43,869 nucleotides of DNA from a virus. The DNA lies in the IMG/VR virus record IMGVR_UViG_3300045988_057526, positions 1 to 43,869 of that record; one strand, 5' to 3'. The position numbers and the translations under genes are program-made. Position 1 is the stretch's first letter. Each line of letters opens with the position of its first letter. The notes below the pieces were generated by a model, which worked only from the letters and a program-made list of their open reading frames with translations, was not told the origin of the DNA and ran no database searches. Shown one piece after another: positions 80 through 43,869 of the stretch.

Positions 80-265
80 AAGAACCAGTGTGTCGCCGTC
101 CCATTGGAACAGATACAACTTCTCAGGAGTATTGCCTGTCCAGAAACCCATACGTTTTTTCTTGATGTATTCGGGATTAGAAAGGATGAGCTGCTTCTTG
201 CACCATGTAAGCAACTGCTCAGACGGGTTTTCAATTCGGAGCTGGTTGCCAACAGTTACTTGCAT
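1..265 (-). CDS. SF2 helicase, N-terminal segment (same gene as 42667-43869, wrapping the junction)
   Basis: The minus-strand frame of the helicase stays open across the junction up to ATG 265-263, with an in-frame TGA at 283-281. It reads MQVTVGNQLRIENPSELLTWCKKQLILSNPEYIKKKRMGFWTGNTPEKLYLFQWDGDTLVLPYGC then LNDVLAMDD. The start overlaps the resolvase stop by 10 nt. Confidence 0.8.
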   Translation of the reverse strand, partial: MQVTVGNQLRIENPSEQLLTWCKKQLILSNPEYIKKKRMGFWTGNTPEKLYLFQWDGDTLVLPYGCLNDVLAMDDCHMKVNLPTPTEV

Positions 266-663
266 AGACTCACCCACGCATCAAGGGAAATACACATCAT
301 GCGAATATCCCTTTCGTTGAGTTGCTTAACGCCTTTCGCGGCCAAATTATTGAGTGTATAGAGCGAAATGAAGTATATATCTCCGTCTTTCAGCCTTAGC
401 GCAAACCAGCCGGTGCCGTTACCTGTAGCCTCCCACAGCGTCATTGCAGATCGCTGATTTTCTTCGATTCGACTCAGGCGGAAAATATCATTCTCACACA
501 CCTTGCAATCGATCGGGTGGGTTTCTCGATTACGAGAGGCAAGCACATCAAACGGCTGGCCTTGTGCGTTTTGAGCGAGATTATGCGCCCAGAAGCCCTT
601 ATTGGACAAATATTCGCACAACGATTTTTCAAAACCGTTGCCGACTTTACGGTTGACATTCAT
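256..663 (-). CDS. Holliday junction resolvase, PD-(D/E)XK fold (Hjc/RecU-like)
   Basis: GNGFEKSLCEYLSNKGFW...QPFDVLAS...PIDCKV matches the G-FE...D-(I/V)-A...E/D-x-K layout. AAAGGAG ribosome-binding site upstream of ATG 663. Confidence 0.65.
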   Translation of the reverse strand: MNVNRKVGNGFEKSLCEYLSNKGFWAHNLAQNAQGQPFDVLASRNRETHPIDCKVCENDIFRLSRIEENQRSAMTLWEATGNGTGWFALRLKDGDIYFISLYTLNNLAAKGVKQLNERDIRMMCISLDAWVSLCK

Positions 664-3934: not shown

Positions 3935-3955
3935 AACAGGGGGTGTCTTTTTTGT
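3917..3955 (+). terminator. Rho-independent terminator of the lysogeny operon
   Basis: AGACACTCC...GGGGTGTCT stem (one G-U pair) followed by TTTTTTG. The int stop codon lies in the loop. Confidence 0.7.
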
Positions 3956-3958
3956 TTA

Positions 3959-4065
3959 GGTGATAAAGGTGAGTAATCGAGCGTTTTTCCTATAAACTCT
4001 CTCTTATACGCGCGTACTAAGAAGAAGTTATAGGGATTTTGACCCGATTACTCACCTTTATCACC
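3959..4065. repeat. Nested palindrome A (107 bp). The inner 46 bp is the attP candidate.
   Basis: Perfect 21-bp arms GGTGATAAAGGTGAGTAATCG / CGATTACTCACCTTTATCACC. Inner imperfect dyad at 3989-4034 (16 of 23 per half) is centred on TACGCGCGTA (4007-4016). It lies between convergent terminators next to int. Confidence 0.6.
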
Positions 4066-4080
4066 TTATACACTTAAATG

Positions 4081-4112
4081 TAAAAATCCCCGGAAGCTGA
4101 AACCTCCGGGGA
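4081..4112 (-). terminator. Rho-independent terminator ending the late operon
   Basis: TCCCCGGA / TCCGGGGA 8-bp stem followed on the minus strand by TTTTT. Confidence 0.7.
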
Positions 4113-4128
4113 TGCTGTTATATGAATA

Positions 4129-5668: not shown

Positions 5669-7555
5669 TTACGCCTTTGGCGATATTAGGCATCCACCGA
5701 TGTACTCGCCGAACACCTGCCGCCCATATTCGTTAAGATGTGTGCCGTCTGCCAAAAATGCGGAAGCGTTTGCGGTGTTTATGCCAAGTGCCTTGTAGCC
5801 GTCGATGCAGGGACAGTTGAACTCATCGGCCACACCTGCAAGCGCCGTGCCGAACTCACGCAGCGTCTTACCGTTGCCGTTCGTGTAGCTCTCTGCGCCG
5901 ACGCTGTCCCACTTGCGATAGATTGGCAAGGAAATAAAGACGCGAATTTTTGGATAGGCAGTCTGAATCTTGCGCAGCGCGTATCGCAGCGCCCCGCACA
6001 ACGTTGATGTATCATCGTCATCGGTAGCGTTGTCGATAGCGACATTGCCGGTGAAGTCGTTCGTACCGTAGTGGATGACCACCGTGTCAACACTGCCAAA
6101 GTCAATTCCTTTCAGCACCGCAAGCTGCTGTGCAAAATAATCTGCGCCGCTGGATGCCTGCGCATCCTGTGTGGTGTAAGTGCCCGTGGCCACAGCATCG
6201 GCCAGTGCCCACATAGAAAACGCAGCGTAGCCGCTCGTTGGGTGCACCGCCATCCGGCAGCCACCAAAGCCCACATTGCAAACCTTTGCACCCGTGAATG
6301 CCGCCGCCCATGCGGGGACGGAGGTTGTGTCTCTCGTCATGCCAAATATGCTGTCGCCAAAGCACACAACCGTCTTGCCCGACAGTAGGGGCGATGCTAT
6401 GTCAAAATCGACATTCGCCTTTTTGACCTTCACGCTCGGTTTGAGCACATTCTGCGTAGTCACGGTGTCGGTTATCTCCTCGTTCACAGTGACTATGGCA
6501 TCAGCCGAGTGGGTCGTGACACGAAGCCACGCAAAGTTGTCCCAAAAGTAATAACCGATGCCCGAGGTGTCCCATGTGACGACATTGCCGCTTACAGTCA
6601 CCGTGCCATACAGCGCGCTGCTTTGGATGGCATTAATGGTCTTGCCGCAATTTGCCGTACCGGCTTTGGCTGCCGTCAGTGCCATGACAAGCGTCGTGTC
6701 GATGTTCACCCGTGATGTGTCCTTGATGCGGATGATATCGCCCTTTTTCACGGGAATATACCCAGATGTCACCACGCCGGTGCCGGACAGTTCTTCGCCC
6801 GCGCTGTTCAGATACACGCCGGATTTGTATCCCGTCCCGTTGTAGACCGCCCCATTGGCATCTGCGGAAACCGGAATTTGATTGGTATATGCCGGCGCAG
6901 TAATGGTTTCCGCTACCACGATTTCCGGAAAGTCTACTTCCTGCGCGCTGCTGCCGTCATAAGTAGTGGTAGCGCCGCCCACTTTAAGCGTCAGCGCCTT
7001 CGGGTTCGGCAGGGTTTCCGGCACAGTGGGGATTTGCACAAGGATTCTCTGTGCCGCAACTTGGAATGCGCCGTACTGCACCAAGTCCGTGGTATGGCCC
7101 GGATTATTAAGATTCTCTGCTGTCACCAGCCCCGTGATGCTGTCGATTACCGCCTTGTTCGCGTGCGTGTGCCGCGCGGTGGTGTTGGCGTTGATCTCCG
7201 CAGTCGGGACTACCGGGATATCACCCGGCGCGGCAGGCTTGTACCCAAGCGCACCTGTGATGCTTGCCGCAGTCACGGTCGCGTCACTGCCGTCCTTGCC
7301 GGGAGCGCCGTCCGCTCCCTTGAGGTCTGCCACCGCGATCAAGTTTTCCCACGTGCTGCCGTCCGTGCTGTACTGGATGTAGCCGTCCGCCACGCGCAGG
7401 AATTTGCCGGCTGGCATATCCACCGGCTCCCATGCGGTCGGCACTCCGAGTGCATCCACGGCTGTGATCTTGGCGATCTGGCCGACCGTCGCTCCAGTGA
7501 TGCTTAGAGACTTTGGCTCATTTTTGTCACTGTAATGTTTCGTCCCAATTCCCAT
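5669..7555 (-). CDS. Tail fibre or receptor-binding protein with a C-terminal SGNH/GDSL esterase domain
   Basis: ATG 7555 follows GGAGGTG. Short collagen-like GADGAPGKDGSD. C-terminal blocks VVCFGDSIFG, GGCRM, GTNDF and DGTHLNEYG are typical of SGNH hydrolases. Confidence 0.7.
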   Translation of the reverse strand: MGIGTKHYSDKNEPKSLSITGATVGQIAKITAVDALGVPTAWEPVDMPAGKFLRVADGYIQYSTDGSTWENLIAVADLKGADGAPGKDGSDATVTAASITGALGYKPAAPGDIPVVPTAEINANTTARHTHANKAVIDSITGLVTAENLNNPGHTTDLVQYGAFQVAAQRILVQIPTVPETLPNPKALTLKVGGATTTYDGSSAQEVDFPEIVVAETITAPAYTNQIPVSADANGAVYNGTGYKSGVYLNSAGEELSGTGVVTSGYIPVKKGDIIRIKDTSRVNIDTTLVMALTAAKAGTANCGKTINAIQSSALYGTVTVSGNVVTWDTSGIGYYFWDNFAWLRVTTHSADAIVTVNEEITDTVTTQNVLKPSVKVKKANVDFDIASPLLSGKTVVCFGDSIFGMTRDTTSVPAWAAAFTGAKVCNVGFGGCRMAVHPTSGYAAFSMWALADAVATGTYTTQDAQASSGADYFAQQLAVLKGIDFGSVDTVVIHYGTNDFTGNVAIDNATDDDDTSTLCGALRYALRKIQTAYPKIRVFISLPIYRKWDSVGAESYTNGNGKTLREFGTALAGVADEFNCPCIDGYKALGINTANASAFLADGTHLNEYGRQVFGEYIGGCLISPKA

Positions 7556-12255: not shown

Positions 12256-15200
12256 TTACGCCAACAGTGGGCTAAATCCGGTTGCGCGGATGGCGGCATT
12301 GTTTTCGTCAACCATCTGTCTAAACAATTCTTTACCGTTCATCTGCACAATTACAGTGATCGGGCGGCTGTTGCCCGAATTCGTTTCACCGCTTGCCCTC
12401 TGCACTGCCTCGTACACACCTTGCGATACAGATTCAACAATCTGATCGTTGTTTGCTACAGCCGTCTTTCTGCCGATATTACCAACCATTTCGGCACCGG
12501 ATTCACGAGCGATAAAGAGCTGCCCTTCATCCACAAAACCGCCGTCTGCGAAAGTAGGAACGTGGGGAATGTTCACCAACCGGGCGTTAAATGCTGGAAC
12601 GACTTCTTTTCCAAGAACACTCAATCCTCTGAAAGAGATATGAAATACGTTATTGATTGCATCTACAACTCGGTTAATTATTCCGATAATGGAATTCGCC
12701 ATTCTCCGAACAAAATTGGTAATGGGGTTATCATCAAGTGACCATGCCGCGTATGACAGGCCAAGACCAGCCGCTAGCACGGCAAGACCCAATCCAATTC
12801 CAGCACCGCTCAAACAAAGCAGAACACCGAGTACCGTCAGAGCGCCTCCGAGAATACCTGCGATAACAGAAACCACTTTTTTAATGGCGGTCACAACGGT
12901 GTTCCAGTTCAGGGCTACCGCCGATCCGAGACTTAGAGCGCCAGCCGCCATCAGGCCAAGACCGAGAGGAAGGGCGACTCCGCTCAGAGCAAGGATAGCG
13001 CCGACCGCCAAGAGAGCGCCGCCGACAACGATGGTAATTATGTTGATCTTCTTCCGAACATTGTCGGAGAGGTTATTCCAGTTCGGCATAATCGCCGTAC
13101 CCATTGTGACCGCGCCTGCCGCCAACAGAGCCAGAGCCAGCGGGATATTCGTCCCGGAGAACGCCAGTGCCGCACCAATAGCGAGGAACGCCACAGATAC
13201 AACTGCGGTAATAACTGCAATCACATTCTGAATTTCATCGCTCAGGCCATTCCAGTTGAGAGCCATCACGGAAACCAGAGAAGTAGCGCCAACAGCCATC
13301 AGCGCAATACCGAGGGGCATAGACCCGGAGAAAGCGAGGATAGCACCGAGTGCCAAGGTTGCTCCGCTGACCAGCAATCCTACTCTGGACAAGGGAGAAG
13401 CCAGAGCTTTCGATATACTATTCCAGTTCAGAGCTGCGGCAGATACAAGCGTGGCAGCACCAATAGCCATCAGCGCAATACCCAGCCCGATTGCAACCCC
13501 GGTAAAGGCTAACATAGCGCCGACAGCCAGAGAAGCACCTGCCAGAACTCCCGTTAAGGTGGTCAAAGCGTCAGTGAGGTGTTGGTCGCTGTTATGCCAG
13601 TTGATAACAGCGGCAGTTGCAAGGCTTGCTCCACCCAAGGCCATCAACGCGATACCAAGAGGAAGGTTTGCCCCGGAAAACGCCATAATTGCGCCAAGAG
13701 CCAGCAGGAAACCACCGACAACACCCGTAATGAGAGCCAGTGTATTTGCCAATTCGCTACTCATAGCTGTCCAATTCAGCCCCACGGTAGCCGCAAGACC
13801 GACCGCACCAGCAGCCATCAGGCTGACGCCCAGCGGAATATTCACACCGGTTACGACCAGAATTGCACCTACCGCCAGCATAAAGCCGGAAACAATCGTG
13901 GCGATCTCTGCAAGAGTATTTTCAATCATCTTCTGGATTTCACCGATGCGGGTTTCTACCGCATCATCGAGAAAGCCATAGGTGGGAAGATCGAAGTCAA
14001 ATCCACCCCCGCCAGCACCACCAGCGCCCCCGCCCGATCCGGCATTGCTGTTCGAGGGAAGTACATTCAACTCGTCAAATCCGGCAATGTATTTCTTTAG
14101 CTCTTTAGCTGACCCGGCAGCGCTTCCGAGATTATCTGCCACCGCCCCCGTGCCGGATGCGAGTTTCCCAACGCTTGAGTAATCAACATCGGTCAAAGTA
14201 AAACCGAGAAGATTTGCGATAGCGTTTGCAATCTCTCGAATAACTTTAACTACGGCAATCGCATAAGGAAGGATGGCGTTCAGAGCCGGAATGAAGATGT
14301 TACCGATAGCTCGTGCAGCCTGTGTAAGCTGTGCCTGCAAGATACGAAGCTGGTTTGCGGGAGCTTCCAGAGTTCTCGCCATATCGCCTTGAGCGGTCGT
14401 CACCTGAGTCATGACGGCATAATATCTCAGCTCGGCCTTTTCTGCCTGCGTCATGTTCGCAACGCTTTCCTTGATACCAAGGTTCAAAGCGGTCTGTTCC
14501 AATCGTGCCTGCGACAAATCGTAGCCCAAGCGCCGCAGAGGTTCCAGCTCACCGGAAATACCGGACTGTAACTTCTGCATAGCGTCTTCAATGGAAATGT
14601 TGAAGAAAGAAGAAAGGTCATAACCCAACTGCGTCAGGTTTCGGCTCATGAGCTGCGCTCGTTCTGCCGTGTCACCAAAGCCGGTCAGCAGCGTATTGAA
14701 AATGCCCTGATTGCGGAGCCATTGCGCAGGGTCAATACCCATGACATCGGATACCTTTTCCGCATATTCTTTTGCTTCACCCGCATACTCCCCCAAGGCA
14801 ACCGTGAACAGGTTCAGGTCTTCTTGGTACTTATTGGACTCCGTGACCGCCTGTGCAATGAAATTACCGATTTTGCGGAAAGCGACTGCGACAGCAGCAA
14901 CGTTCAACGCTTTCAATCCACCCGTGAACTTCCCGGTAGTGGAGGTTGCCTTACCAACCGAAGCATTGTATTTTTCCGTGCTGGTAATCAGCTTTTGGAT
15001 TTTGGACGGGAACGCCGAAAAACCGTTGGACACCTTCTGCATTTCATCAGCGAAAGGCTTCATGGCGGCGGCAAGAGAGGTCATCTGTTGCGTGAACTTG
15101 TCAATATCTGCCGCTTCCAAGTCTTCAATTACTTTCGGCAATTTCGAAAGTTGAGTCGTGAAAGAGGTTAGATTGGCCTTCCTCATATTGGAGAGGGGAA

Positions 15201-15570
15201 GCAAACCATTAACGAGGGTTGTCACTTTGTCCCCGTCTGTCCATTTAAGACCAGCGATAGCAGTGTTGATGGCCGTAAGCTGATTGGCAATGGATGAAGA
15301 AATCTTCACATTTCCAACCTGACTCAGTGCGCTCATTGCCTTCGTGATCCTGCCAATCTTTTGAGAGGCGTCGCCGCTGTTCAAGCCTTTCAGAGAATTA
15401 GAAAGCTCCCGAATACCATGAGCGGTCTTGCTCAGACCCGTTACGCCGCCGTTGGTGGCGGTTTTTAAACGATTGAGCGTGTTAATCAGGTTTTGAAGCC
15501 CCTTGACCGCCTGCGTACTGTCATTGACGATCTGAAACTCTAACCCCTGAATTTCCACATTATCAGCCAC
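12256..15570 (-). CDS. Tape measure protein (1104 aa)
   Basis: Largest ORF, following the chaperone pair. Long helical N-terminal region, Gly-rich linker and a hydrophobic repeat block. GTG start overlaps the upstream stop. Confidence 0.85.
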   Translation of the reverse strand: MADNVEIQGLEFQIVNDSTQAVKGLQNLINTLNRLKTATNGGVTGLSKTAHGIRELSNSLKGLNSGDASQKIGRITKAMSALSQVGNVKISSSIANQLTAINTAIAGLKWTDGDKVTTLVNGLLPLSNMRKANLTSFTTQLSKLPKVIEDLEAADIDKFTQQMTSLAAAMKPFADEMQKVSNGFSAFPSKIQKLITSTEKYNASVGKATSTTGKFTGGLKALNVAAVAVAFRKIGNFIAQAVTESNKYQEDLNLFTVALGEYAGEAKEYAEKVSDVMGIDPAQWLRNQGIFNTLLTGFGDTAERAQLMSRNLTQLGYDLSSFFNISIEDAMQKLQSGISGELEPLRRLGYDLSQARLEQTALNLGIKESVANMTQAEKAELRYYAVMTQVTTAQGDMARTLEAPANQLRILQAQLTQAARAIGNIFIPALNAILPYAIAVVKVIREIANAIANLLGFTLTDVDYSSVGKLASGTGAVADNLGSAAGSAKELKKYIAGFDELNVLPSNSNAGSGGGAGGAGGGGFDFDLPTYGFLDDAVETRIGEIQKMIENTLAEIATIVSGFMLAVGAILVVTGVNIPLGVSLMAAGAVGLAATVGLNWTAMSSELANTLALITGVVGGFLLALGAIMAFSGANLPLGIALMALGGASLATAAVINWHNSDQHLTDALTTLTGVLAGASLAVGAMLAFTGVAIGLGIALMAIGAATLVSAAALNWNSISKALASPLSRVGLLVSGATLALGAILAFSGSMPLGIALMAVGATSLVSVMALNWNGLSDEIQNVIAVITAVVSVAFLAIGAALAFSGTNIPLALALLAAGAVTMGTAIMPNWNNLSDNVRKKINIITIVVGGALLAVGAILALSGVALPLGLGLMAAGALSLGSAVALNWNTVVTAIKKVVSVIAGILGGALTVLGVLLCLSGAGIGLGLAVLAAGLGLSYAAWSLDDNPITNFVRRMANSIIGIINRVVDAINNVFHISFRGLSVLGKEVVPAFNARLVNIPHVPTFADGGFVDEGQLFIARESGAEMVGNIGRKTAVANNDQIVESVSQGVYEAVQRASGETNSGNSRPITVIVQMNGKELFRQMVDENNAAIRATGFSPLLA
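12736..13917 (-). repeat. Seven tandem repeats of about 174 nt (58 aa) inside the tape measure gene
   Basis: Each unit ends in an LNWN-type motif and contains xxGAxLAxGAILAFSGxNxPLGIALMAxGAxSL, which is two hydrophobic helices per unit. Confidence 0.8.
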
Positions 15571-23918: not shown

Positions 23919-24560
23919 TTATCTGGATTTTGCCATCAGCTCGGCAAACTCCCGGCTGTTTTTCTTAACCGTTCTTTCAATCAATCTCCCATTGCTATAA
24001 AGCACTCGGAAAAGAACAGTAGCAGAGAAAATGTTTCTGGATTGGCTCATGGTCTTCTTTGTACCACTCAAACCACCCACCACGGCACCGGCGCTACCAA
24101 ACATCAAACCGCCAACCGCCGCTCTACCGAGAGATACATTTTTGCCTCGGCTGATTGATTCCTGCCCCATGCCATTATCGCAAGGCTCAGCGGCGACCGG
24201 AACAGGCTTACCAACTTGCAAGGGGAAGGCGGGATATTCCTTTCGGAAATCCTCAATGAGATCGCTCCATTCTTTGTCCGGCAAATCCCAAATGTTTTCC
24301 GGCTTATTTCCGTTCATCGCCACTAAAGCCCCCGTGAGCGTTGCGTTATCCGAGCTGACCATGATTTCAGTTCCGTCTTCCAGTTCCCTCAGATAAAACA
24401 CAAATGGGAGAGAACCTTTCCCCATGCGGAACCTTGTTCGTACCTCAATGCTCTCATTCGGGCAGTCCTGTTTGATGGCGCAAGACCGTTCACAGACTGT
24501 CTTGATAAGCTGATAGCTTTCGCTGGTAGTCATGGGTAATGAAAACTGATAGTACGCCAT
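23919..24560 (-). CDS. Hypothetical protein with a glycine-zipper segment (213 aa)
   Basis: GRAAVGGLMFGSAGAVVGGLSG (aa 145-166) has a small residue every fourth position. Its ATG directly abuts the recombinase TAA stop. Confidence 0.6.
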   Translation of the reverse strand: MAYYQFSLPMTTSESYQLIKTVCERSCAIKQDCPNESIEVRTRFRMGKGSLPFVFYLRELEDGTEIMVSSDNATLTGALVAMNGNKPENIWDLPDKEWSDLIEDFRKEYPAFPLQVGKPVPVAAEPCDNGMGQESISRGKNVSLGRAAVGGLMFGSAGAVVGGLSGTKKTMSQSRNIFSATVLFRVLYSNGRLIERTVKKNSREFAELMAKSR

Positions 24561-25331
24561 TTACACTTCTACCCCTTTCAAAATCGGCTCGTGAACGCCC
24601 TTGACCCAATTCATATTCCCGTATTTATACATACCCTCGTACAGAGGACGGTTGCCGAGAATACTTTTGATGGTAGACACCTGAAACCGCTTGCCGGAAC
24701 GGGTCTGGTATCCCGCCTTTTCCAGCAGCTCCGTGATACCCAGCATGGAAACGCCGTCCTCGTGCTTCTCGAAGATGAACTTCACGATAGGAGCTTCCTG
24801 CTCGTCAATGGTGAGAACACCATCAACTACCTTATAGCCGTAAGGACGGCGACCACCGCTGTACCCGCCGCAGGAAGCCTTGATGGAACGACCCTTGCCG
24901 GTTCGCAAAGCGATGTTCTTTCTCTCCTGCTCTGCCACGAATTGAAGCAGCGCACGGTAGATGTTGGCAAACTCGCTGCCCTCTGTGAAGCTCTCCTGCG
25001 TACTCAGAAGTTTGATGTTCTTCTTTTCCAGCACATACAGGTAGTAGAAGTACAGCTTGGTATCACGAGCCACACGGTCATTCTTGAATACGATCACCGC
25101 TTCATAGGGAGGATTGCTTACATCGTCCCCATAAAGGATTTCGTTCAGACCGGGACGATCATCTTTCGCACCGCTGATTTCATCGACCTTCCAGTCTACG
25201 ATGTTGTAGCCGTTGTCATTGGCGTAGAGAAGAATGGCCTGCTTCTGAACTTCGATGCCGTATTTGTCATCATCGGCCTGTCGCTCGGTGGAGACTCGGA
25301 TATAGCCGATTGCGTTTTTGAATGTCATCAT
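24561..25331 (-). CDS. Short serine recombinase (about 256 aa): catalytic and recombinase domains, no zinc ribbon or coiled coil
   Basis: AIGYIRVSTERQ catalytic Ser. GGRRPYGYKVVDGVLTIDEQEAPIVKFIF...STIKSILGNRPLYEG recombinase domain. Ends shortly after VHEPIL. Confidence 0.8.
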   Translation of the reverse strand: MMTFKNAIGYIRVSTERQADDDKYGIEVQKQAILLYANDNGYNIVDWKVDEISGAKDDRPGLNEILYGDDVSNPPYEAVIVFKNDRVARDTKLYFYYLYVLEKKNIKLLSTQESFTEGSEFANIYRALLQFVAEQERKNIALRTGKGRSIKASCGGYSGGRRPYGYKVVDGVLTIDEQEAPIVKFIFEKHEDGVSMLGITELLEKAGYQTRSGKRFQVSTIKSILGNRPLYEGMYKYGNMNWVKGVHEPILKGVEV

Positions 25332-25350
25332 AAGATCACCTCTTGCATAT

Positions 25351-25379
25351 AAGATAGCATAGGTAAATGTAATTGTCAA
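25351..25379 (-). promoter_or_regulatory. Promoter P2: TTGACA, 17-nt spacer, TATCTT, upstream of the recombinase
   Basis: Minus strand reads TTGACA (25379-25374), attacatttacctatgc (17 nt), TATCTT (25356-25351), then AGAGGTGAT ribosome-binding site and ATG. Confidence 0.6.
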
Positions 25380-26883: not shown

Positions 26884-27035
26884 ATAGCAATCAGCCTTTC
26901 ATAATATATATTCCGTTCCGTTTTCCCATTTTCGGCCTTGATACGCTGAAAGCCTATTTCACCGGCCTACATGGGGAAATGTACGGGGATTTAATTTTCA
27001 AGGTACATTTGCATTTACTGCCTTTCGGTAAATAC

Positions 27036-27064
27036 AAGATAGCATATTTACATTTACTTGTCAA
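27036..27064 (-). promoter_or_regulatory. Promoter P1: TTGACA, 17-nt spacer, TATCTT, upstream of the cassette
   Basis: Minus strand reads TTGACA (27064-27059), agtaaatgtaaatatgc (17 nt), TATCTT (27041-27036). Same architecture as P2. Confidence 0.6.
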
Positions 27065-27259: not shown

Positions 27260-27403
27260 AGTCGCAGACCCTCGCCGTAAAGTCGCAAAGTCGTTCGGGC
27301 GAAAGTCGTAAAAGTCGTGGGAAAATCGCAAAGTCGCTCGGCATAGTCGTAAGCTATAGTCGCAAAAGTCGTGAAAGTCGCTCAGTCCTCTGAGTCATAG
27401 TCG
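27260..27403. repeat. Array of 11 AGTCG pentamers (CGACT on the minus strand) plus one AATCG variant, irregular 8-23 bp spacing
   Basis: AGTCG begins at 27260, 27281, 27289, 27304, 27313, 27332, 27345, 27358, 27367, 27376 and 27399. Eight copies are AAAGTCG. One further AAAGTCG sits at 27969-27975, just upstream of terS. Confidence 0.8.
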
Positions 27404-27951
27404 CCGGACGCACCAACCACATCTTCGAGGTACTTCTTTTCCAAGTCCTCAGCGGGAACCTGATCTCCGAGCTGCTGGTTGGGTGTCAACACGACCTCCT
27501 GCTTGTCCGCATAGCCCATGTTGTTCTTCATCAAGAAGATACCGGCGACCGGATTGATCTTCCCGTTCTGCATATAATTTTCCATCTGAGCGTTCAAAAA
27601 TTGATACGCCTTTTTTAGCGAGTCCCTGCTTTCAGAGGGGATATAGGCACTATCAATACCATTTACCCACTTCCACAGAGTTCTTCTATCAATACCGAAC
27701 GCCAATGCCATACCTGCAACAGAGGGTTTCATGTCATCTTCGGCACAAATCCGAAAGTAATTCCCAATACGCTCAGTCACAGCTTCCGGCTTGGTCATAT
27801 CAACAGCAGGCCAGCCCCACATTCTCAAATCGTGTTCGAGAAACTTCCGATTATCTCCCGGTTGAAGCTGTGCCGTACTATCAGGCCGTTTATTACCGCC
27901 AGTACCTTTTGGTCTGCCACGACCACGCTTTTCCGCAATTTCATCTGCCAT
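27382..27951 (-). CDS. terS: Terminase small subunit
   Basis: N-terminus GRGRPKGTGGNKRP, central helix-turn-helix-like GMALAFGIDRRTLWKWV, C-terminus AGIFLMKNNMGYADKQE. GAAAGGAG ribosome-binding site. Confidence 0.75.
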   Translation of the reverse strand: MADEIAEKRGRGRPKGTGGNKRPDSTAQLQPGDNRKFLEHDLRMWGWPAVDMTKPEAVTERIGNYFRICAEDDMKPSVAGMALAFGIDRRTLWKWVNGIDSAYIPSESRDSLKKAYQFLNAQMENYMQNGKINPVAGIFLMKNNMGYADKQEVVLTPNQQLGDQVPAEDLEKKYLEDVVGASGDYDSED

Positions 27952-27979
27952 AGTCGTTTTCTCCTTTCAAAGTCGCCAA

Positions 27980-28086
27980 GGTGATAAAGGTGAGTAATCG
28001 GGTGCATTTCCCTATAACTATTTCTATATACGCGCGTATAAGAGAGAGTTATAGGCATTTATGCCCGATTACTCACCTAACTCACC
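27980..28086. repeat. Nested palindrome B (107 bp), a paralogue of element A
   Basis: Left arm is identical to A. Right arm matches 18 of 21. The inner dyad at 28011-28055 has the same TACGCGCGTA centre. Its right half is the reverse complement of the A left half (22 of 22 with one 1-nt indel). Confidence 0.8.
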
Positions 28087-28146
28087 TAAAATACGAAAAA
28101 CAATTTTTCAAAACACGCCAATTTGAAAAAAGTCTTTGCAAAAACA

Positions 28147-28174
28147 CTCACCTTTATCACCTTTATCACCTAAC
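28147..28174 (-). repeat. Iterons GGTGATAAA GGTGATAAA GGTGAG overlapping the stop of the upstream gene
   Basis: Minus strand reads TAG TTAGGTGATAAAGGTGATAAAGGTGAG. The 18-mer TCACCTTTATCACCTAAC recurs exactly at 28515-28532. Confidence 0.75.
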
Positions 28175-28503
28175 TACCAATTAGCGTTGATAACCACCTT
28201 GTTCCCATGAGCGAGTGCTTCCGTCACAATCCACACCACACCGTCCCAGTTGTAGACCTTTTTCTTCACGGCGTAGTCTACAAGCTGCTTTGCCTGCTCG
28301 CTGTCAAGAACCATGTCCTTACCATACCAGTCGTTCTCCTTGGTTCGCTTCTCGTAAGGAACATAGTAGCCGAGCTTTTCCAGAAAGTCGTACCAAAGTC
28401 GACCACTGCTGTCAATGCTGGCTATATCCGTATGCCCAACAGGGACACCGCAGTTGGGACAGCGATACTCCTTACGCTCTGAGATCGTAATATCAAGACC
28501 CAT
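28174..28503 (-). CDS. Hypothetical protein (109 aa) immediately upstream of the late region
   Basis: MGLDITISERKEYRCPNCGVPVGH... Its ribosome-binding site is embedded in the repeated 15-mer. Confidence 0.6.
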   Translation of the reverse strand: MGLDITISERKEYRCPNCGVPVGHTDIASIDSSGRLWYDFLEKLGYYVPYEKRTKENDWYGKDMVLDSEQAKQLVDYAVKKKVYNWDGVVWIVTEALAHGNKVVINANW

Positions 28504-28527
28504 ACTATTTCACCTCACCTTTATCAC

Positions 28528-28731
28528 CTAACGGCGGCGTCCGATGTATTCGTCAATACTAATCCGCAATGCATCCGCAAGCAGAGCGATTGTATCAATT
28601 CGCCCATTTTTCGTCGTGCCACATTCCAGCGCGCAGATCGTGGATATGGGCACACCTGAAATCCGCGACAGTTGTGCCGCTGACAACTTAGCCCTATTAC
28701 GTGCTTTACGCATACTCTCGCCCTTTGTCAT
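28528..28731 (-). CDS. XRE-family helix-turn-helix protein (67 aa)
   Basis: RKARNRAKLSAAQLSRISGVPISTICALECGTTKNGRIDTIALLADAL. Confidence 0.7.
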   Translation of the reverse strand: MTKGESMRKARNRAKLSAAQLSRISGVPISTICALECGTTKNGRIDTIALLADALRISIDEYIGRRR

Positions 28732-30358: not shown

Positions 30359-31867
30359 TCAAGACGCTCCTTTCAGTCTGAGATTCTTGTAGACGGGGTA
30401 GCCCTGATACACGACCTTGCCGCCGTGCCACTCAGGGTGTGTTTCCATGTCGGCGTTGAACCGCTTGGCAGAACAGGCAAAGTACCCGTTGGACTTGCAC
30501 CAAATCTTGTAAGCGTCAAATAGGGACTTCGAGCGGATATTGACTCCCTCGGCCTGCTCGCAACGCTCTTCGAGAAATTGCAGGCACAGGTCGTTGTCAC
30601 GCTCGTACTGATTGACCACCTTCCGCATAGCGGGAGACATTTTTAGACCGAAACGCTTGTACTTGAAGTACCCGGCGACCAGCCAAGCGAAAATGCCCTG
30701 CATAGCCTCCTGCGTCTGAAACTCATTTTTTAGATTCTTGTCCTGCTCCGCTTCGGTGAAATGGCGGTTGAACTCAATGACCCGTACACGGTCGGAAGCG
30801 AACAGGGACTTATCGCTGACGGTGGGAAGATCGTTACAGGAGAGCCAAAGGGTGAACTGCGGCAGGAAGGTCGTGGCAGTCTCATAGAGGTTCCGAGCCT
30901 TGATTTCCTCGCCGCCTGTGAGCTGCTTGATCGTTTCTTCGTCCAGCTTGCCATACTGGTTGCTCTCTGCCATTGTGACAAACCGTTTGCCTTTCAGGGA
31001 AGCCAGCATGGGGTTCGCTGCTTCGGCGTTCTTCGAGCGTTCTGCCTTGCAGATGATCGACACGGGGGACACGGAAGCATAGTCACCGAGAAGGTGGTGA
31101 ATTGCCGAGAGCATGGTGGATTTGCCGTTGCGAGTGGTCTTGCCGTGGAGAATGAACATACATTCCTCATTTGCTACACCCAACATAGAGTACCCCAGCG
31201 CCTTTTGCAGATAGTCAGCTTTGTCTTCGTCATTGCACGTGACCTCCGCAATAAACTTTTCCCAGCGGCGGCACCGTGCGTCCTGCAAGGTGTAGTTGAA
31301 GTTGGTCTGCATGGTCAGAAAGTCGTGCCAGTCATGCTCCCGAAACTCCATCTTTTCGAGGTCGAAAGTGCCGTTCTTGCAGTTGATAAGGTAGGGATTT
31401 GCGTCAAACTCCGCCGAAGCGATGGGAAGCACACTGGCAGCGTCCTTCATCAGCCGGTCACGGAAGCGCCGGTCGCCCATCTTCACGATGAACTTCATGT
31501 ACTCGGTGCGGCGTTCTTCGTTGGCGATCTCGCCACAGTAGAGAGCCATCAGGCGGCAGAACTCCTTGATCTTCTCCGCTACCAGCAGAGAACCCGTGTC
31601 TTTGCGCCATGCACCATCTTTGTAAGTAAACCAGCTTTTCGCTTCGGGGCAGTAGCGGGTATCATTCTTGTAGCACTCGGAGAACAGCTCCGCCATGCCG
31701 GACTCGTCCCACGAATATCCCGTTCCGCTGATCGGGTGGCTATGCTCAGGCTGTGCTTCCTTAATCTGAAACATCACTCTGGACTGAGCTTCGTCCATGA
31801 TGTAGCGACCGTTGGAGAGCTGGAAAAGCTCCTGTTCTTCGGGGACGGTTGTGATTTCATCAGCCAT
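30359..31867 (-). CDS. D5/P4-type primase-helicase (SF3 NTPase)
   Basis: 502 aa. Walker A GKTTRNGKST. D5_N-like N-terminal part. Confidence 0.75.
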   Translation of the reverse strand: MADEITTVPEEQELFQLSNGRYIMDEAQSRVMFQIKEAQPEHSHPISGTGYSWDESGMAELFSECYKNDTRYCPEAKSWFTYKDGAWRKDTGSLLVAEKIKEFCRLMALYCGEIANEERRTEYMKFIVKMGDRRFRDRLMKDAASVLPIASAEFDANPYLINCKNGTFDLEKMEFREHDWHDFLTMQTNFNYTLQDARCRRWEKFIAEVTCNDEDKADYLQKALGYSMLGVANEECMFILHGKTTRNGKSTMLSAIHHLLGDYASVSPVSIICKAERSKNAEAANPMLASLKGKRFVTMAESNQYGKLDEETIKQLTGGEEIKARNLYETATTFLPQFTLWLSCNDLPTVSDKSLFASDRVRVIEFNRHFTEAEQDKNLKNEFQTQEAMQGIFAWLVAGYFKYKRFGLKMSPAMRKVVNQYERDNDLCLQFLEERCEQAEGVNIRSKSLFDAYKIWCKSNGYFACSAKRFNADMETHPEWHGGKVVYQGYPVYKNLRLKGAS

Positions 31868-32023: not shown

Positions 32024-32203
32024 TTACCTCCAATAATTAAAGCGGTCAAAGATATCAAGATCACGTATTTTCTTCCGCCGATTATTTTCGATTTCCTTAC
32101 GGCGCAAGTAGTCCGCGTGTTCTTTTTGATACCGTTCACACTTGACGTGACAACCCGGATGCCTGTCCGGGCATTTGTAACAGCATTGGATACCAGTAGT
32201 CAT
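32024..32203 (-). CDS. Cys-rich micro-protein (59 aa), below the track cutoff
   Basis: ATGA overlap with the prim-pol stop. Reads MTTGIQCCYKCPDRHPGCHVKCERYQKEHADYLRRKEIENNRRKKIRDLDIFDRFNYWR. Confidence 0.45.
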   Translation of the reverse strand: MTTGIQCCYKCPDRHPGCHVKCERYQKEHADYLRRKEIENNRRKKIRDLDIFDRFNYWR

Positions 32204-32982
32204 CTTTTATACCTCGTCACTGAATTTACAATTAGTTCGACCTCGGACTGCGGGAGAGGGGGCTTGCAGGCTTGGGAGTTGGCATACAACAGCTCTTTGT
32301 AAATCTCTGCTTTGGTGTATCCTTGGTTATGGAGCTGACCCGCCAGAGAAGTCAGGCTGAGGTTCCGACTTCCCGGTGTGATAGGCGGGTATTCGGGCTT
32401 TAACCTCAGCTTGCCGTTTTCAGGGCGGCGGTAGATGGGAGAATAGATACGCTGAGGGGCAACCGTACCTGAGCTACTTTCCTTCGGTGTGTCGGGAAAA
32501 TACTTCTCGATCACATAATCAATCGCTGACTGATTTTCAACGATCTCGGAGAAGATCAAAACCTTGCCGGTCATGATGAAGTACCGATTGCTCTTGTAAA
32601 TCTCCACGGCGGCACGGTTGTTCTTGCCCTTAAAAGGCAGCTCACCACGAACGAGAATATGAACCCCTCTACCGCTTCTGGACTTTTCCGTGTAGGAGTG
32701 GCAACGACCGATAATGTCAGCCGCCAGCGGGTTCAGAAGCCCGTCAGTAAAGCCATCGTCAATGTCGATACCGATTATCCCGTTGTCATGAAATACATAG
32801 CCAAGACCATCATAGTAGCCATGCTGGACATTGTGTTCAGCGTCAATGTAATTTGACCATGTATCAGGATTAGAGGAAGAAGCTGCTTTTCTGACGGTGG
32901 CCTGCATGGGAACTTTCGATCCGTTCCACACATTGACCCATGCCTTTTCCGCTCGAAGTTCAGCGGGTATATTCTCATACAT
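32200..32982 (-). CDS. Archaeo-eukaryotic-type primase-polymerase (prim-pol) domain protein
   Basis: GAGGTGG ribosome-binding site before ATG 32982. MYENIPAELRAEKAWVNVW, GIDIDD, SRSGRGVHILV and AVEIYKSNRYFIMTG. Confidence 0.7.
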   Translation of the reverse strand: MYENIPAELRAEKAWVNVWNGSKVPMQATVRKAASSSNPDTWSNYIDAEHNVQHGYYDGLGYVFHDNGIIGIDIDDGFTDGLLNPLAADIIGRCHSYTEKSRSGRGVHILVRGELPFKGKNNRAAVEIYKSNRYFIMTGKVLIFSEIVENQSAIDYVIEKYFPDTPKESSSGTVAPQRIYSPIYRRPENGKLRLKPEYPPITPGSRNLSLTSLAGQLHNQGYTKAEIYKELLYANSQACKPPLPQSEVELIVNSVTRYKR

Positions 32983-32992
32983 TGTTGCCACC

Positions 32993-33538
32993 TCAGCTTT
33001 CATACGGGCTGGGCAAAGACCAGTCCCATCTATCACCGCCACGGTAGGCGTTGCGGAAGTGGTTTCTCTCGCCATCGCCAGAGAACCATAAGTAATCCGC
33101 AGGGAGGACACGACCAACCTCAACCTGACCTTCTCTCTCTGCATACCAGCGGGATAACACATCTATACAGAGAGTAATCAAATCGTCATCGATCGGATTT
33201 TTCGCATTGTACCCTACGAATTGTCTGGGTGCAGTCACGACCGTTATAATATCGCCGTAGCCATGATCGACACGGTTGAGCACACACCACACACAAGCAG
33301 CTTTCTCAGCGTCAGAGTTGACCCCTCTGGCTTCTCCCCATAGCATTCTCGCCAGTACAATCACTTCCTCGTCTGTCCACCGCTGAGGCGTCACCTCCGG
33401 CTTTGACTCCGGGGTGACTACCTCTACCACCTCGACAACGGGAGAAGGTTCTTCAACCTCAACCGTGGGCATTTTCCAACAGAGAACGGTGACAATGATG
33501 ACGAACCATAGGGAGATTGTAATGGTTAGCTCTCGCAA
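32993..33538 (-). CDS. SleB-like cell wall hydrolase with an N-terminal membrane anchor
   Basis: ITISLWFVIIVTVLCW anchor, Pro/Glu/Val linker, then LARMLWGEARGVNSDAEKAACVWCVLNRV...APRQFVGY. TTG start is uncertain. Confidence 0.6.
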   Translation of the reverse strand: MRELTITISLWFVIIVTVLCWKMPTVEVEEPSPVVEVVEVVTPESKPEVTPQRWTDEEVIVLARMLWGEARGVNSDAEKAACVWCVLNRVDHGYGDIITVVTAPRQFVGYNAKNPIDDDLITLCIDVLSRWYAEREGQVEVGRVLPADYLWFSGDGERNHFRNAYRGGDRWDWSLPSPYES

Positions 33539-40228: not shown

Positions 40229-40830
40229 TTAATTGAACCACTTGATTGTGGTATTTCCGGTGAAACCTTTTTCCCAAATGTACCAAGCGTAAGCAAGCGC
40301 ACTTCCACCGCCATCACGCATCTTCTGAAACTCAGCGTTTTTCGCACACAACAGACGAGAGCTGGATACATAAATTACTTTGGGTGGACATTTCGTAAAA
40401 AGCTCTTTTCGCTTTCGACCTTCCATGAAAGTGAGCTTCAAGAACATCGCCACATGATTTCCTTCTTTTACAAGAGAGAGAGCGCTTTTTCAACGAATTG
40501 TTGTGCATACTTGTAGGGAGGATTGGTGACAATATCTCCGGGAAATGGCTCGTTGCATTGGAGAAAATCAATACCACTTTCCCCGTAACCACGATCAATC
40601 AAGTCCGTAGATTTGACCAAGTATCCGTGCTTCTCAAAAACTTCGGATAAATGCCCCTCTCCACAAGCACACTCCCAAATGTAAGGTGAAAAGCGGAATA
40701 TATCGCATAGCAGCTCCGCCGCTTTTGGCTCGGTTGCATAGAAATCATGGGTTTCACGCTCTTTTTCAGTATGATTGGACGCACCAATAGTTTTGAATGT
40801 CGATGTTCCCGTACCTGTCCAATCTTTCAT
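40229..40830 (-). pseudogene. N6-adenine DNA methyltransferase (NPPY) split by a frameshift at an (AG)5/(CT)5 repeat
   Basis: The N-terminal part (40468-40830) ends IVTNPPYKYAQQFVEKALSLL then stop. The -1 frame continues ALSLVKEGNHVAMFLKLTFMEGRKRKELF...AYAWYIWEKG to 40229. The repeat is at 40473-40482. Confidence 0.7.
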
Positions 40831-42677
40831 CAATTCACCTCCAACATTTCTAATAATTTTTTCTTGATGGAATTAACTCTGCGAGTATTTCGCTTGGGTG
40901 GCTTCTCTCCAAGAAAATCTCGGACATAACGCCGTGCCAGCCGGATATACCAGTCACGGTCAACCACATCAATCGTCAGGTGATTGTCGTTGTCTACGAC
41001 ACATTTTGCGGGGAGTCCAGCAATCTTGACGGGATTGCCAGTACCGAGGTGGATTTTGTAGAGGGTTCCGTACCGATGATCTTCCGTGGCATATACCCGG
41101 TTGACTTTCTGTACGACCTCCATCTGACCGTCTACTTCATGGAGAGCGTCACCGTATTTGCTCCCGGCCTTGGCGACCAACTGGAAGTCCAGCAGACGGT
41201 CACAGCTCATGATGGTATCTTCGACCGGAACACCATAGGCCAGATAATCTTTGACGGCCTTGGCAACCACGCAGGCGTTGTTGTTGATGTTGAACGCTCC
41301 TGCTGGGGCAATTCCACGAACGAGAACGCCGCCCTTGATTTTGGGGTCGCCCTCAAAGGGAACTTCGACATAATTGTTTACATCTTTCTGACAGATCATC
41401 TTGATAAGGTCTTCCTCTAACTCAAAGCCGGTTCTGTCCTGCCACTCCTGCGTGATTTCCTGATACATAGGAACATCGCAGTCATCAAGGCTGACCATGA
41501 TGCCATCGGTGTTGAGCTGAATGATCTTCAAGGTGGGGCAGTCCTGAACAAGATGTTCCGCCATTTCGAGCAACTGCAACTGGCCTGAGATACAGACCGA
41601 GCGCCCCATAAGCGGGTCATACAGGTCGTTGTAGCGGTTCAACATGGCGCCGTAGGTGGTGTTCAGCACCAGCTTCAAAGCGTTCGCCGTAGCCTTGTCC
41701 CCGGCTCTCTTTGCTTTGACTCGCCGCTCAATGGTAGCGGCATACACATCGGGAGAGGGAATGTTTCTGCTACAATAACCGTTCAAGGTCATCTGGTGTG
41801 GATAGTAACTTGCAACATCTTTGTTGCGGATAGAGCGGGTTTCTGTGGCTTCCTCTCGGTAACATGGGATAGCTCCGTGAATACCACCGTAGGCAATGGT
41901 GCAAGGACAGCCACCTACCATCAAATCGAGCTTTTCCTTGAACACCACTTCGTCAGGAATACTCTTATCCTTCAACCGTTCAAAGAAGTCGAACACTTCC
42001 TGCGGAATGTACTGACGAAGCAACTTCGGCGGATACTGATATTCCCGCTCGTCATAGTGCGGCTTTTGCTCTGCGTCAAGGTAAGCAGCGGTCAGCTTGG
42101 CGTTGGTCATGTAGAGGGCTTTTGCGGGATACAGCCCCTTTTCACGACCCAGCGTGAGCTTACTGGACAGGTAGCCTTGACGAAGATCGTCCAGCCTGTC
42201 GGTTGCATCAACATCATGACGGCAGTAGAACTCGACCTCTCGCTTCTCGTCCTCAGTCAGAGGGCGGTCGATGTTAAATGGAACGGTGGTTTCACGAATG
42301 TCCATTCCGAGGTGCGCTTCGATTGCTTTCAAGGACAACCCCATCTGGCAATCGTCCATCAGGTCATATTGATCGAAGAAAATCCCGCAGTCACGGAGAG
42401 GGGCGTACTCCCAGCCCTCGTGACCACCGACGATAATAAAATCGTTGACCGCCTTGATTTCCTCCGGCATGAAACCTGAGAGAACCGCTTTTAAAATGAA
42501 TTGGTCATAGTGCTTATTGTTGAACCCTGCCAATAGGGGTTCTTGGGTCATGAATTGTTCAACCGCTTCATTGTCATTCCAAATCTCGGTGTATTCCCCC
42601 GTGACCTTGTTTTTGAAGACAAAAAGCCAATCGTAGGCAAACACCTCGCAGTCGAAAATGAAAGGTTCAAGGTTCAA
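40830..42677 (-). CDS. Family B DNA polymerase with 3'-5' exonuclease
   Basis: Exonuclease motifs FDCEV, NNKHYDQFIL and YCRHDVDAT. Polymerase motifs DVASYYPH, KLVLNTTYGAM and LNTDGIMV. Confidence 0.75.
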   Translation of the reverse strand: MNLEPFIFDCEVFAYDWLFVFKNKVTGEYTEIWNDNEAVEQFMTQEPLLAGFNNKHYDQFILKAVLSGFMPEEIKAVNDFIIVGGHEGWEYAPLRDCGIFFDQYDLMDDCQMGLSLKAIEAHLGMDIRETTVPFNIDRPLTEDEKREVEFYCRHDVDATDRLDDLRQGYLSSKLTLGREKGLYPAKALYMTNAKLTAAYLDAEQKPHYDEREYQYPPKLLRQYIPQEVFDFFERLKDKSIPDEVVFKEKLDLMVGGCPCTIAYGGIHGAIPCYREEATETRSIRNKDVASYYPHQMTLNGYCSRNIPSPDVYAATIERRVKAKRAGDKATANALKLVLNTTYGAMLNRYNDLYDPLMGRSVCISGQLQLLEMAEHLVQDCPTLKIIQLNTDGIMVSLDDCDVPMYQEITQEWQDRTGFELEEDLIKMICQKDVNNYVEVPFEGDPKIKGGVLVRGIAPAGAFNINNNACVVAKAVKDYLAYGVPVEDTIMSCDRLLDFQLVAKAGSKYGDALHEVDGQMEVVQKVNRVYATEDHRYGTLYKIHLGTGNPVKIAGLPAKCVVDNDNHLTIDVVDRDWYIRLARRYVRDFLGEKPPKRNTRRVNSIKKKLLEMLEVN

Positions 42678-43869
42678 GGAACTTGCACCCCGCTTTCCGG
42701 TAGGTGGTACACCGCTTCTTGTAACTTCTCACGAGGTACTGGATACCATCGTCCACATAATCATAGGCGATAGGTTCTCCCTTTCCCTCGAAGGTACGAG
42801 CGATACGACCAATGCTCTGAGTTATCACAGCGTAGTCTTTCTGCGGCGTAGTCAGGTACAAGCGGTCGAGCCGGGGAATGTCAAGTCCTTCCTTTGCCAG
42901 TGAATAGGTGGCAAACAGATACCGCTTGCGTCCCTGCCGCATTTCCTCAATAGCCTGTTCTCGGAGAGCCTTGGCCTTCTTCGTGGTCATCTTTCCATCA
43001 ATCATGACCGCCTGTTTTCTCAGGTCGGACGGAAGATGGTTCATCAAATACTCCAAATGACCAAGCCTGTCTGATAGAATTAGGTTGAAATGCTGATCGT
43101 TCTGTATAAGATCGCCAACAATCTGACCGTTACGGCGAAAATCTTCGACAAGATAATTCACCAGTTTTGCATAAATGATTGTGCCGTCCGTATCAAGAAA
43201 TTCACGGTCTAAACCGATGTGAGTGGCACGGGGTAGAACGCTGACGGTCATGATCTTGTCTTTCACCGCTTCCTCCGGCACCCGATAGGCAATCCCGCCC
43301 AGCAAGGCGTAGGTGGCGGCAATCATACCGTCTGCCCTGTGAACCGTGGCGGACAGACCGTACTTGTGTCGAGCTGCCAGAGCGTTCAGCACCTTTGAGA
43401 ACTGCGTCATGGCGGTCGGAGTTCCGGCTACACGGTGACACTCGTCCACGATGATACAATCCCAAACATCACGGTATTGACTCAGATCGAGGTTGCACAT
43501 GGTCTGTACCGTTGCGAAGGTGATTGCCTTGCCGATTTGAACCCTACCTTCGGTGATTGTGCCAGTCAAAGAAGGACTCATATACTGCTCCGCTCGGCTT
43601 TTGCTCTGTACGAGCAAATCCCGTGTATGGGTCAGCCAGAGTGTCCTTCGACCTGTATCTGCCGCAACAGCAATTCCGATCTGCGTCTTACCGCATCCCG
43701 CAGGGGCTTGAAGAATACCGTAGTAGGCAGTTATCAGGGCTTCCTTGGCTTCCACTTGGTAGTCATAGAGCGGAATGGTGCAACCGAAGTCCACCTCGGT
43801 CGGCGTTGGAAGATTGACCTTCATGTGACAATCGTCCATCGCCAGCACATCGTTCAAGCACCCGTAGGG
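42667..43869 (-). CDS. SF2 (DEAD/DEAH-type) helicase, main body; continues at 80-265 across the circular junction (462 aa in total)
   Basis: LQAPAGCGKT (Walker A), IIVDECHRV (motif II), SAT and a C-terminal RecA-like domain. The TTG at 43857 is only an artefact of the window edge. Confidence 0.8.
   Translation of the reverse strand, partial: PYGCLNDVLAMDDCHMKVNLPTPTEVDFGCTIPLYDYQVEAKEALITAYYGILQAPAGCGKTQIGIAVAADTGRRTLWLTHTRDLLVQSKSRAEQYMSPSLTGTITEGRVQIGKAITFATVQTMCNLDLSQYRDVWDCIIVDECHRVAGTPTAMTQFSKVLNALAARHKYGLSATVHRADGMIAATYALLGGIAYRVPEEAVKDKIMTVSVLPRATHIGLDREFLDTDGTIIYAKLVNYLVEDFRRNGQIVGDLIQNDQHFNLILSDRLGHLEYLMNHLPSDLRKQAVMIDGKMTTKKAKALREQAIEEMRQGRKRYLFATYSLAKEGLDIPRLDRLYLTTPQKDYAVITQSIGRIARTFEGKGEPIAYDYVDDGIQYLVRSYKKRCTTYRKAGCKFLEP
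43791..43869. repeat. Second copy of the 79-bp closure overlap
   Basis: Identical to bases 1-79. Confidence 0.9.

Follow-up and report, generated by a model that had tools for sequence, protein, structure and literature searches.

The boundary between the early and late genes of the phage genome analysed here carries a 109-bp quasi-palindrome, element B (27979 to 28087), which we consider, with a probability of roughly 0.62, to be the core of a replication origin read by the P4-family helicase of the phage, with a second copy, element A (3958 to 4066), serving as a further site for the same protein. Behind this reading stand the anatomy of the elements, the homology that the helicase shows, the association of repeat types with helicase types, and the same layout in the annotated origin of Lactobacillus phage A2, which carries a homologous helicase. 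It supplies a candidate origin, a candidate initiator and a specificity code, made up of eight pairs of helicase and repeat, for temperate phages that form a common family in the Dysosmobacter/Oscillospiraceae of the human gut, and we know of no study of how these phages replicate.

The window, meaning the whole stretch of 43,869 nt that was analysed, is a phage genome assembled as a circle, and the same contig is held in ENA (ERZ27260803 k119_71903). Bases 1-79 recur exactly at 43791-43869; this 79-nt terminal direct repeat is an assembly overlap, and the genome is a circular or terminally redundant molecule of 43,790 bp. Relatives of the phage originate from human faeces, and relatives of its integrase are located in Dysosmobacter genomes. 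Almost all genes lie on the minus strand, where early replication genes (DEAD helicase, DNA polymerase, Erf, RecE-like exonuclease, primase and P4-family helicase) are followed by terS, terL, structural and lysis genes, while the plus strand carries a CI-like repressor and a large serine integrase (2270 to 3934). The GC skew of the window tracks the direction of transcription and is therefore uninformative about an origin.

Anatomy of the two elements

The initial annotation had described a 107-bp element upstream of terS together with a second copy, and both are real, with extents of 109 bp each. Aligned on both strands as had been proposed, A and B are 84% alike overall, matching at 95/113 positions in the direct and 93/111 in the inverted orientation. 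The two copies share the left arm AGGTGATAAAGGTGAGTAATCG without a difference, agree at 18/21 in the right arm and have the same centre TACGCGCGTA, at 28029-28038 in B and at 4007-4016 in A. These matches are as first reported; the right half of B likewise proved to be the reverse complement of the left half of A (22/23, one indel). The claim that the inner core of B lies in the opposite orientation did not hold. Between CCTATAA and TTATAGG the two cores match at 41/48 directly and 42/47 inverted, and their halves disagree, one favouring inversion (22/23 vs 20/24) and the other the direct orientation (21/24 vs 20/24); the orientation is irresolvable because both copies are quasi-palindromes. 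Placement at the early/late boundary, 28 nt before the terS start, agrees with our measurement, B ending 27-28 nt ahead of the terS ATG. The terS gene (27382 to 27951, minus strand; Pfam GP3_package and PHROG terS) is the first late gene, and it adjoins element B without being its partner.

Each copy has two GGTGA repeats per side, spaced 9 bp apart and facing inward, which flank a 65-bp AT-rich centre. In B, which folds as a DNA hairpin with z = -9.9, the left arm (27979 to 28000, plus strand) consists of two iterons 9 bp apart (AGGTGATAA, AGGTGAGTA) and ATCG, identical to the left arm of A, and the right arm (28066 to 28087, minus strand) of two minus-strand iterons (AGGTGAGTT, AGGTGAGTA) pointing at the left arm. 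Nested inverted repeats, CCTATAAC/GTTATAGG, and a palindrome, TATACGCGCGTATA, lie in the centre between them (28001 to 28065), which has a GC content of 38.5% vs 50.6% for the genome and is at the 5th percentile among 65-nt windows. Element A has perfect 22-bp inverted arms and lies between two convergent terminators, that of int on the plus strand (3914-3951) and that of the holin gene on the minus strand (4086-4113).

Five extra GGTGA repeats are found just upstream of B only, giving nine at 27979-28532 and four in A. Three are tandem iterons (TTAGGTGATAAAGGTGATAAAGGTGAG on the minus strand; 28147 to 28173) directly after the stop codon of the ORF at 28174-28503, and two further tandem iterons (28514 to 28532, minus strand) lie between that ORF and an HTH gene (28528-28731). 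The 59-nt spacer between the iteron sets (28088 to 28146) is kept in relatives, with similar iteron-flanked sequence in L191, L201 and L304. The repeat pair GGTGAKNNNGGTGA occurs 7 times vs 0.06 expected, only in A, B, 28147-28173 and 28514-28532, and TATACGCGCGTA is matched 3 times, at two sites, vs 0.13 expected when one mismatch is tolerated.

Since there are two iterons per side and they face inward, one hexamer per side could load. We propose that the SF3 helicase (30359-31867) would bind the GGTGA iterons through its predicted C-terminal winged-helix domain, that one hexamer would be loaded on each side of the 65-bp centre and melt it, and that the primase (32200 to 33162, minus strand; PHROG DNA primase families, Pfam PriCT_1 C-terminal domain) and the phage DNA polymerase (40830 to 42677, minus strand; phrog_1252, E = 1.6e-141) would then start synthesis. 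The five further iterons and the 59-nt spacer would extend the origin toward the early genes. A is a minimal second copy, presumably read by the same protein, that may be either a second origin or a cis partner in the manner of P4 crr or SPP1 oriR.

The helicase, its repeats and known origins

The putative initiator is a P4-family SF3 helicase (30359 to 31867, minus strand; D5_N, DUF5906 and Pox_D5) with a winged-helix-like C-terminal domain. Its best sequence match in the PDB is SaPI5 PriRep (7OLA, E = 3.7e-13), the alignment extending into the C-terminal domain of 7OLA, and its Foldseek matches are D5-family primase-helicases (ASFV C962R, 7OLA and MPXV E5). The AF2 model has a pLDDT of 74.5 overall and of 82-90 in the C-terminal domain, where the order helix, strand, helix, helix, strand, strand is winged-helix-like.

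Relatives with a diverged terS keep the architecture of tandem repeats, spacer, palindrome of about 110 bp with 2+2 inverted repeats, and next gene, and in diverged relatives the repeat motif switches in concert at all positions. Eight helicase variants correspond to eight repeat types of this same architecture: AGGTGA in the window, GGTGAC in L222, AGTGA in L201 and L190/L298, GGGGGT in L299, GGGTG in L300, TGTAGAG in L303, GTAGAYGA in L304 and GATACG in L137, the helicase of which (D5_N/DUF5906) is very different from that of the window. The centres of the other variants have 20-36% GC. Among the fetched loci of the GGTGA type, all that encode the helicase have it at 99-100% protein identity, and the genes between helicase and element are variable in presence and sequence in these loci. 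Variation among the helicases is highest in the columns of residues 1-50, 437-446 and 476-502, the last two of which lie in the C-terminal domain (about residues 412-502). The element begins 10-50 nt past the helicase stop codon in L137, L299, L300 and L303, and in the window B lies 2.27 kb downstream of the helicase gene, a distance that counts against the origin reading.

The repeat motif follows the helicase and not TerS, because L137 and L147 combine almost the same TerS protein with unlike repeats (GATACG vs GGTGA), and TerS was accordingly rejected as the repeat-binding protein. A helix in the helicase, SAKRFNADM, was considered as the determinant of GTGA specificity and also rejected, as L304 retains SAKRFNADM yet has GTAGA repeats. 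Physical linkage confounds the association between helicase and repeats, and another DNA-binding protein of the early region could track the repeats equally well. The suggestion of the initial annotation that one protein acts at both copies survives these comparisons in part: the shared binder stands, but the helicase is a likelier candidate for it than the recombinase then named.

Among known systems, SaPI origins lie downstream of rep and consist of short iterons, with at least two opposed iterons on each side of an AT-rich centre; the iterons are read by a C-terminal winged helix, and one hexamer is thought to load per side (PMC9371898). A and B share exactly this layout of iterons and AT-rich centre, and the window helicase matches SaPI5 PriRep (7OLA). 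They differ in that SaPI has a single origin immediately after rep, whereas the window has two copies and its primase is a separate protein.

A closer phage parallel is offered by Lactobacillus phage A2, like the window phage a temperate siphophage of the Firmicutes; its P4-family primase/helicase is a homologue of the window helicase (32% identity, E = 3e-60), and iterons lie downstream of the gene. The annotated rep_origin of A2 (32208-32717 in AJ251789.2), which is the subject of a paper by Moscoso and Suarez (2000, Virology 273:101), starts at the 3' end of the helicase homologue, and its sequence contains inward-facing ACGGGAGGAT iterons around an AT-rich stretch of about 65 bp. In contrast to the window, A2 has an iteron spacing of about 12 bp, another motif and a centre that is not a nested palindrome, and the proposed origin of the window is next to terS, at a distance of 2.27 kb from the helicase gene. 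A second iteron cluster was not found in the A2 genome, which has one cluster only, and the second copy in the window is therefore left unexplained by the A2 precedent.

Two-site systems offer a partial parallel here. In the alpha protein of P4 a winged helix follows the SF3 domain (PMC2777425). The window helicase belongs to the same family and has a winged-helix-like C-terminal domain. P4 needs both ori and crr, each bound by alpha, and SPP1 has an oriL and an oriR; like A and B, these are separated cis sites with the same initiator-binding repeats. However, P4 crr consists of direct 120-bp repeats and is not a palindrome, and the SPP1 initiator G38P is unrelated to the window helicase.

The telRL site of N15 and the pal site of PY54, which are protelomerase targets, share a central 10 nt equal to TACGCGCGTA (PMC3540006). 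The centre of A and B is identical to this core, and the longer TATACGCGCGTA(TA), which holds it, is present in the window at 28027-28040 and 4005-4016 and in L303, with other iterons, at 6035-6048. Element B further shares 15 nt (TATACGCGCGTATAA) with what we take to be the telO sequence. Unlike such targets, the window has two copies and the phage integrates through a serine integrase, and no protelomerase gene was found among the window ORFs scanned. A protelomerase target was rejected on the missing enzyme gene, the two copies and the replacement of the centre in other repeat types (TATAGAG-type); the match to the telRL/pal core is likely a consequence of an easily melted alternating sequence.

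Integration site and copies in relatives

Element A had been taken for the putative attP, and this assignment is corrected by integrated prophages, which were reached through close integrase homologues with altered C-termini. Homology between these prophages and the window stops at 3852-3858 (TCCACCA), within the 3' end of int. On the int side, in L206-L210, it stops after ...GTCCACCA, and on the lysis side it ends at the same TCCACCA, the 3' CCA end of an RNA gene. The lysis-side junction abuts tRNA-Ala(cgc) near dnaX in L212 and L213; L215, L216 and L218-L220 have a common second junction, beside smpB where the flank is long enough, and Rfam finds a tmRNA at the L215 junction (143 bits). In all of these loci, L212, L213, L215, L216 and L218-L220, element A is unbroken and lies about 100 bp inside the prophage; with the break at 3852-3858 and A uncut, A is rejected as attP. 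The true attP (3831 to 3880, plus strand) consists of a 10-bp inverted repeat, GGGTTCGGAT/ATCCGAACCC, around the core TCCACCA, and is a typical serine-integrase attP of about 50 bp inside the int 3' end, which is why the C-terminus of the integrase is altered on integration. The target of the serine integrase is thus the 3' end of tRNA-Ala or tmRNA, and the attP lies inside the integrase gene itself; the CCA end of an RNA gene is a class of attB associated more with tyrosine integrases. The central crossover dinucleotide of a serine-integrase attP is as a rule not palindromic; in the centre of A and B, TACGC/GCGTA, the central dinucleotide is CG, which is palindromic. A search of genome contigs with the integrase gave only two loci, both from Dysosmobacter and both without the element. 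Where conserved palindromes stand beside int or terS, prophage junctions should be checked before att or cos is called.

The exact 21-mer arm matched at least 120 viral-contig stretches, and 199 element copies were counted in the fetched loci, some contigs having been fetched twice. The main flank pairs are early side and terS side (161 copies), the upstream side of the lysis cassette (17, here called C-type) and holin and int (15). Wherever both parts of a contig were fetched, each holds B and one second copy. The initial annotation had wished to see the copy number in related phages checked; relatives keep two copies in constant places, the early/late boundary for one and the neighbourhood of the lysis/integrase modules for the other, and its remark that a copy stands in a functionally loaded position is borne out by a conserved element at both. 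No part of the window is covered by more of the fetched loci than the B region, which has about 96% nucleotide identity vs 69-75% for the adjoining 5' part of terS, and of all non-coding stretches in these loci the element region is the one shared most widely.

Two copies with matching arms recur in three lineages. A phage of the GGTGACCC type has both on one contig (L221 and L222), the second directly before the holin gene, and their arms are specific to that phage and common to both copies while the inner part has diverged. In L303 two copies 2.9 kb apart have identical arms and a diverged inner part, and in L304 the palindrome is followed by a second arm pair. As the arms are matched though the inner parts have diverged, selection acts on the arms at both sites, and, given the recurrence of an arm-matched second copy, the use of two cis sites may be frequent among P4-family helicases. 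Searches with GATACG-type arms, GGGGGT-type arms and an AGTGA-type 15-mer gave chance or unrelated matches only, and the L305 locus is too short to reach the element.

Within the copies, inner segments do flip. Among phages that are otherwise near-identical, L212 and L218 carry the inner 65 bp of the int-side copy in the opposite orientation to L213, L215 and the window, with identical flanks, and in L119 a core of about 47 bp between CCTATAA and TTATAGG is inverted vs the B copy of the same genome, L107, with the spacers direct. The orientation of B is the same in 160 B-type copies. These flips probably come from template switching or from recombination between the nested inverted repeats.

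In some relatives (L125, L127, L129, L139, L145, L154 and L179) one or two additional small ORFs separate B from terS. A near-copy of the ribosome-binding-site block GAAAGGAGAAAACGACTATG accompanies each of these ORFs, a pattern that looks like cassette insertion through recombination at the block. In C-type relatives, genes for a reverse transcriptase (RVT_1) and a CBM_5_12 protein come shortly before the second element copy (L033, 4194-6003), and this locus may be a diversity-generating retroelement.

Competing readings and minor features

The main rival to the origin is a late operator or promoter, because B and the C-type copies abut late and lysis ribosome-binding sites. Here an early-encoded activator or repressor would act on the GGTGA repeats of B to control the late genes, and the second copy would do the same at the lysis cassette, with late transcription turned on or insulated as the outcome; we regard this as unlikely, while counting it against the origin reading that B, the C-type copies and L221 stand directly before the ribosome-binding sites of late or lysis genes. 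B keeps its place right before the first late gene and its ribosome-binding site, also where additional small ORFs precede terS, the C-type copies and L221/L224 are just ahead of lysis or holin ribosome-binding sites, there is no terminator between the early and late genes, and the repeat type belongs to the early module. However, a promoter and terminator scan found no sigma-70-like promoter in or near B, copy A is enclosed by two terminators with no downstream gene, and B and C face the downstream gene with opposite arms. The element of L299 and L303 comes after the helicase gene, and next to it stand small ORFs or a reversed cassette rather than terS; in L304, terS begins about 280 nt further downstream, beyond a distinct promoter-like site of the TTGACA type. 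No regulator gene is common to all eight repeat types, whereas the helicase is. A further reading, in which the two helicase-bound palindromes would be more than origins and would also be hairpin or cruciform processing sites that might couple replication to late expression or genome maturation, is improbable. Behind it are the bracketing of the late operon by the palindromes in window-type phages, the strength of the fold (z = -9.9), the flip/flop of inner segments, and a centre that equals the core of a telomere-resolvase target in two repeat types; a Hjc/RecU-like resolvase or the conserved truncated serine recombinase would be the candidate enzyme, and the flip-flop mechanism would be one not described for integrating tailed phages.

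Readings of the element as a recombination site, a pac or cos site, a MITE or an RNA hairpin each fail a direct test. A reading in which the integrase or the short serine recombinase (24561-25379) would pair A with B, inverting or deleting the 24-kb late region, or in which one of them is a decoy attP, is suggested by two similar copies per genome with a symmetric CG centre, by the 99-100% conservation of the truncated recombinase in relatives and by the A-type inner segment occurring in both orientations. Yet the real attP is elsewhere and A is uncut on integration, B has a single orientation in 160 B-type copies, and it is the arms that are conserved across repeat types and not the centre; moreover, two sites that flank a flipped segment of 65 bp are probably too close together to synapse. 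Hybrid A/B flank pairs are absent among the 199 copies, which have the parental pairs only, and the inversion partner put forward in the initial annotation falls with them, making this whole line highly improbable. The same low standing belongs to a pac or cos site at which TerS would bind the repeats and TerL cut the symmetric centre. The position just upstream of terS, the repeats around a symmetric centre and the A/T tracts do recall SPP1 pac and lambda cos, but near-identical TerS proteins occur with unrelated repeat motifs, the same N-terminal domain being found with GATACG and with GGTGA, the element stays with the helicase where helicase and terS are separated (L299, L303), and the second copy is far from terS; without co-variation of TerS and repeats, the earlier idea of a cos-like terminase site is abandoned. 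Strong folding (DNA z = -9.9; RNA with flanks z = -5.0) could point to a long transcript hairpin acting as terminator, attenuator or processing site, a very improbable reading against which stand the lack of a U-tract and of any Rfam family match beyond spurious miRNA-hairpin matches, the non-pairing A/T tracts that make up the spacers, repeat linkers that differ between the arms (TAA vs GTT) while the GGTGA cores are retained, and the presence of the same motif as direct repeats outside the hairpin. Least probable of all is a MITE-like element inserted at tolerated intergenic sites, which the initial annotation had also raised. Terminal inverted repeats (perfect over 22 bp in A), a length of about 107-109 bp, at least eight flank contexts, and TTA triplets flanking A and some further copies would fit one, but all contexts fall into two functional, fixed positions, the arms co-vary with a phage gene and arm-type repeats also occur outside the palindrome. 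No clean empty site was found among 80 terS loci. The TTA flanks noted for A are real, but in relatives the flanks are simply T/A-rich, and the three-base flanks agree in only about half of the contexts.

Several further features of the window were recorded beside the proposed origin. A 135-aa protein (256-663, minus strand) has weak matches to Hjc/RecU-type Holliday-junction resolvases (E = 4e-4 and 2e-3) and could act on cruciforms formed by the palindromes. Between terS and terL lie a 272-aa serine recombinase (24561-25379, minus strand), which has Resolvase and Recombinase domains, is without a zinc ribbon and ends at an in-frame TAA, and, directly after it, a 213-aa ORF (23919-24560, minus strand). 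Relatives with a TerS of only about 75% identity retain this short recombinase at 99-100% identity, and L298-L300 have a similar gene. A pair of 33-nt direct repeats with 82% identity (25347-25379 and 27032-27064) reads on the minus strand as TTGACA, 17 nt and TATCTT, and these promoter-like repeats flank small ORFs between terS and the short recombinase. Four 66-nt repeats with a spacing of 171-174 nt and 61-76% identity (12901-13485) lie inside an ORF of 1104 aa (12256-15570), which is probably the tape-measure gene.
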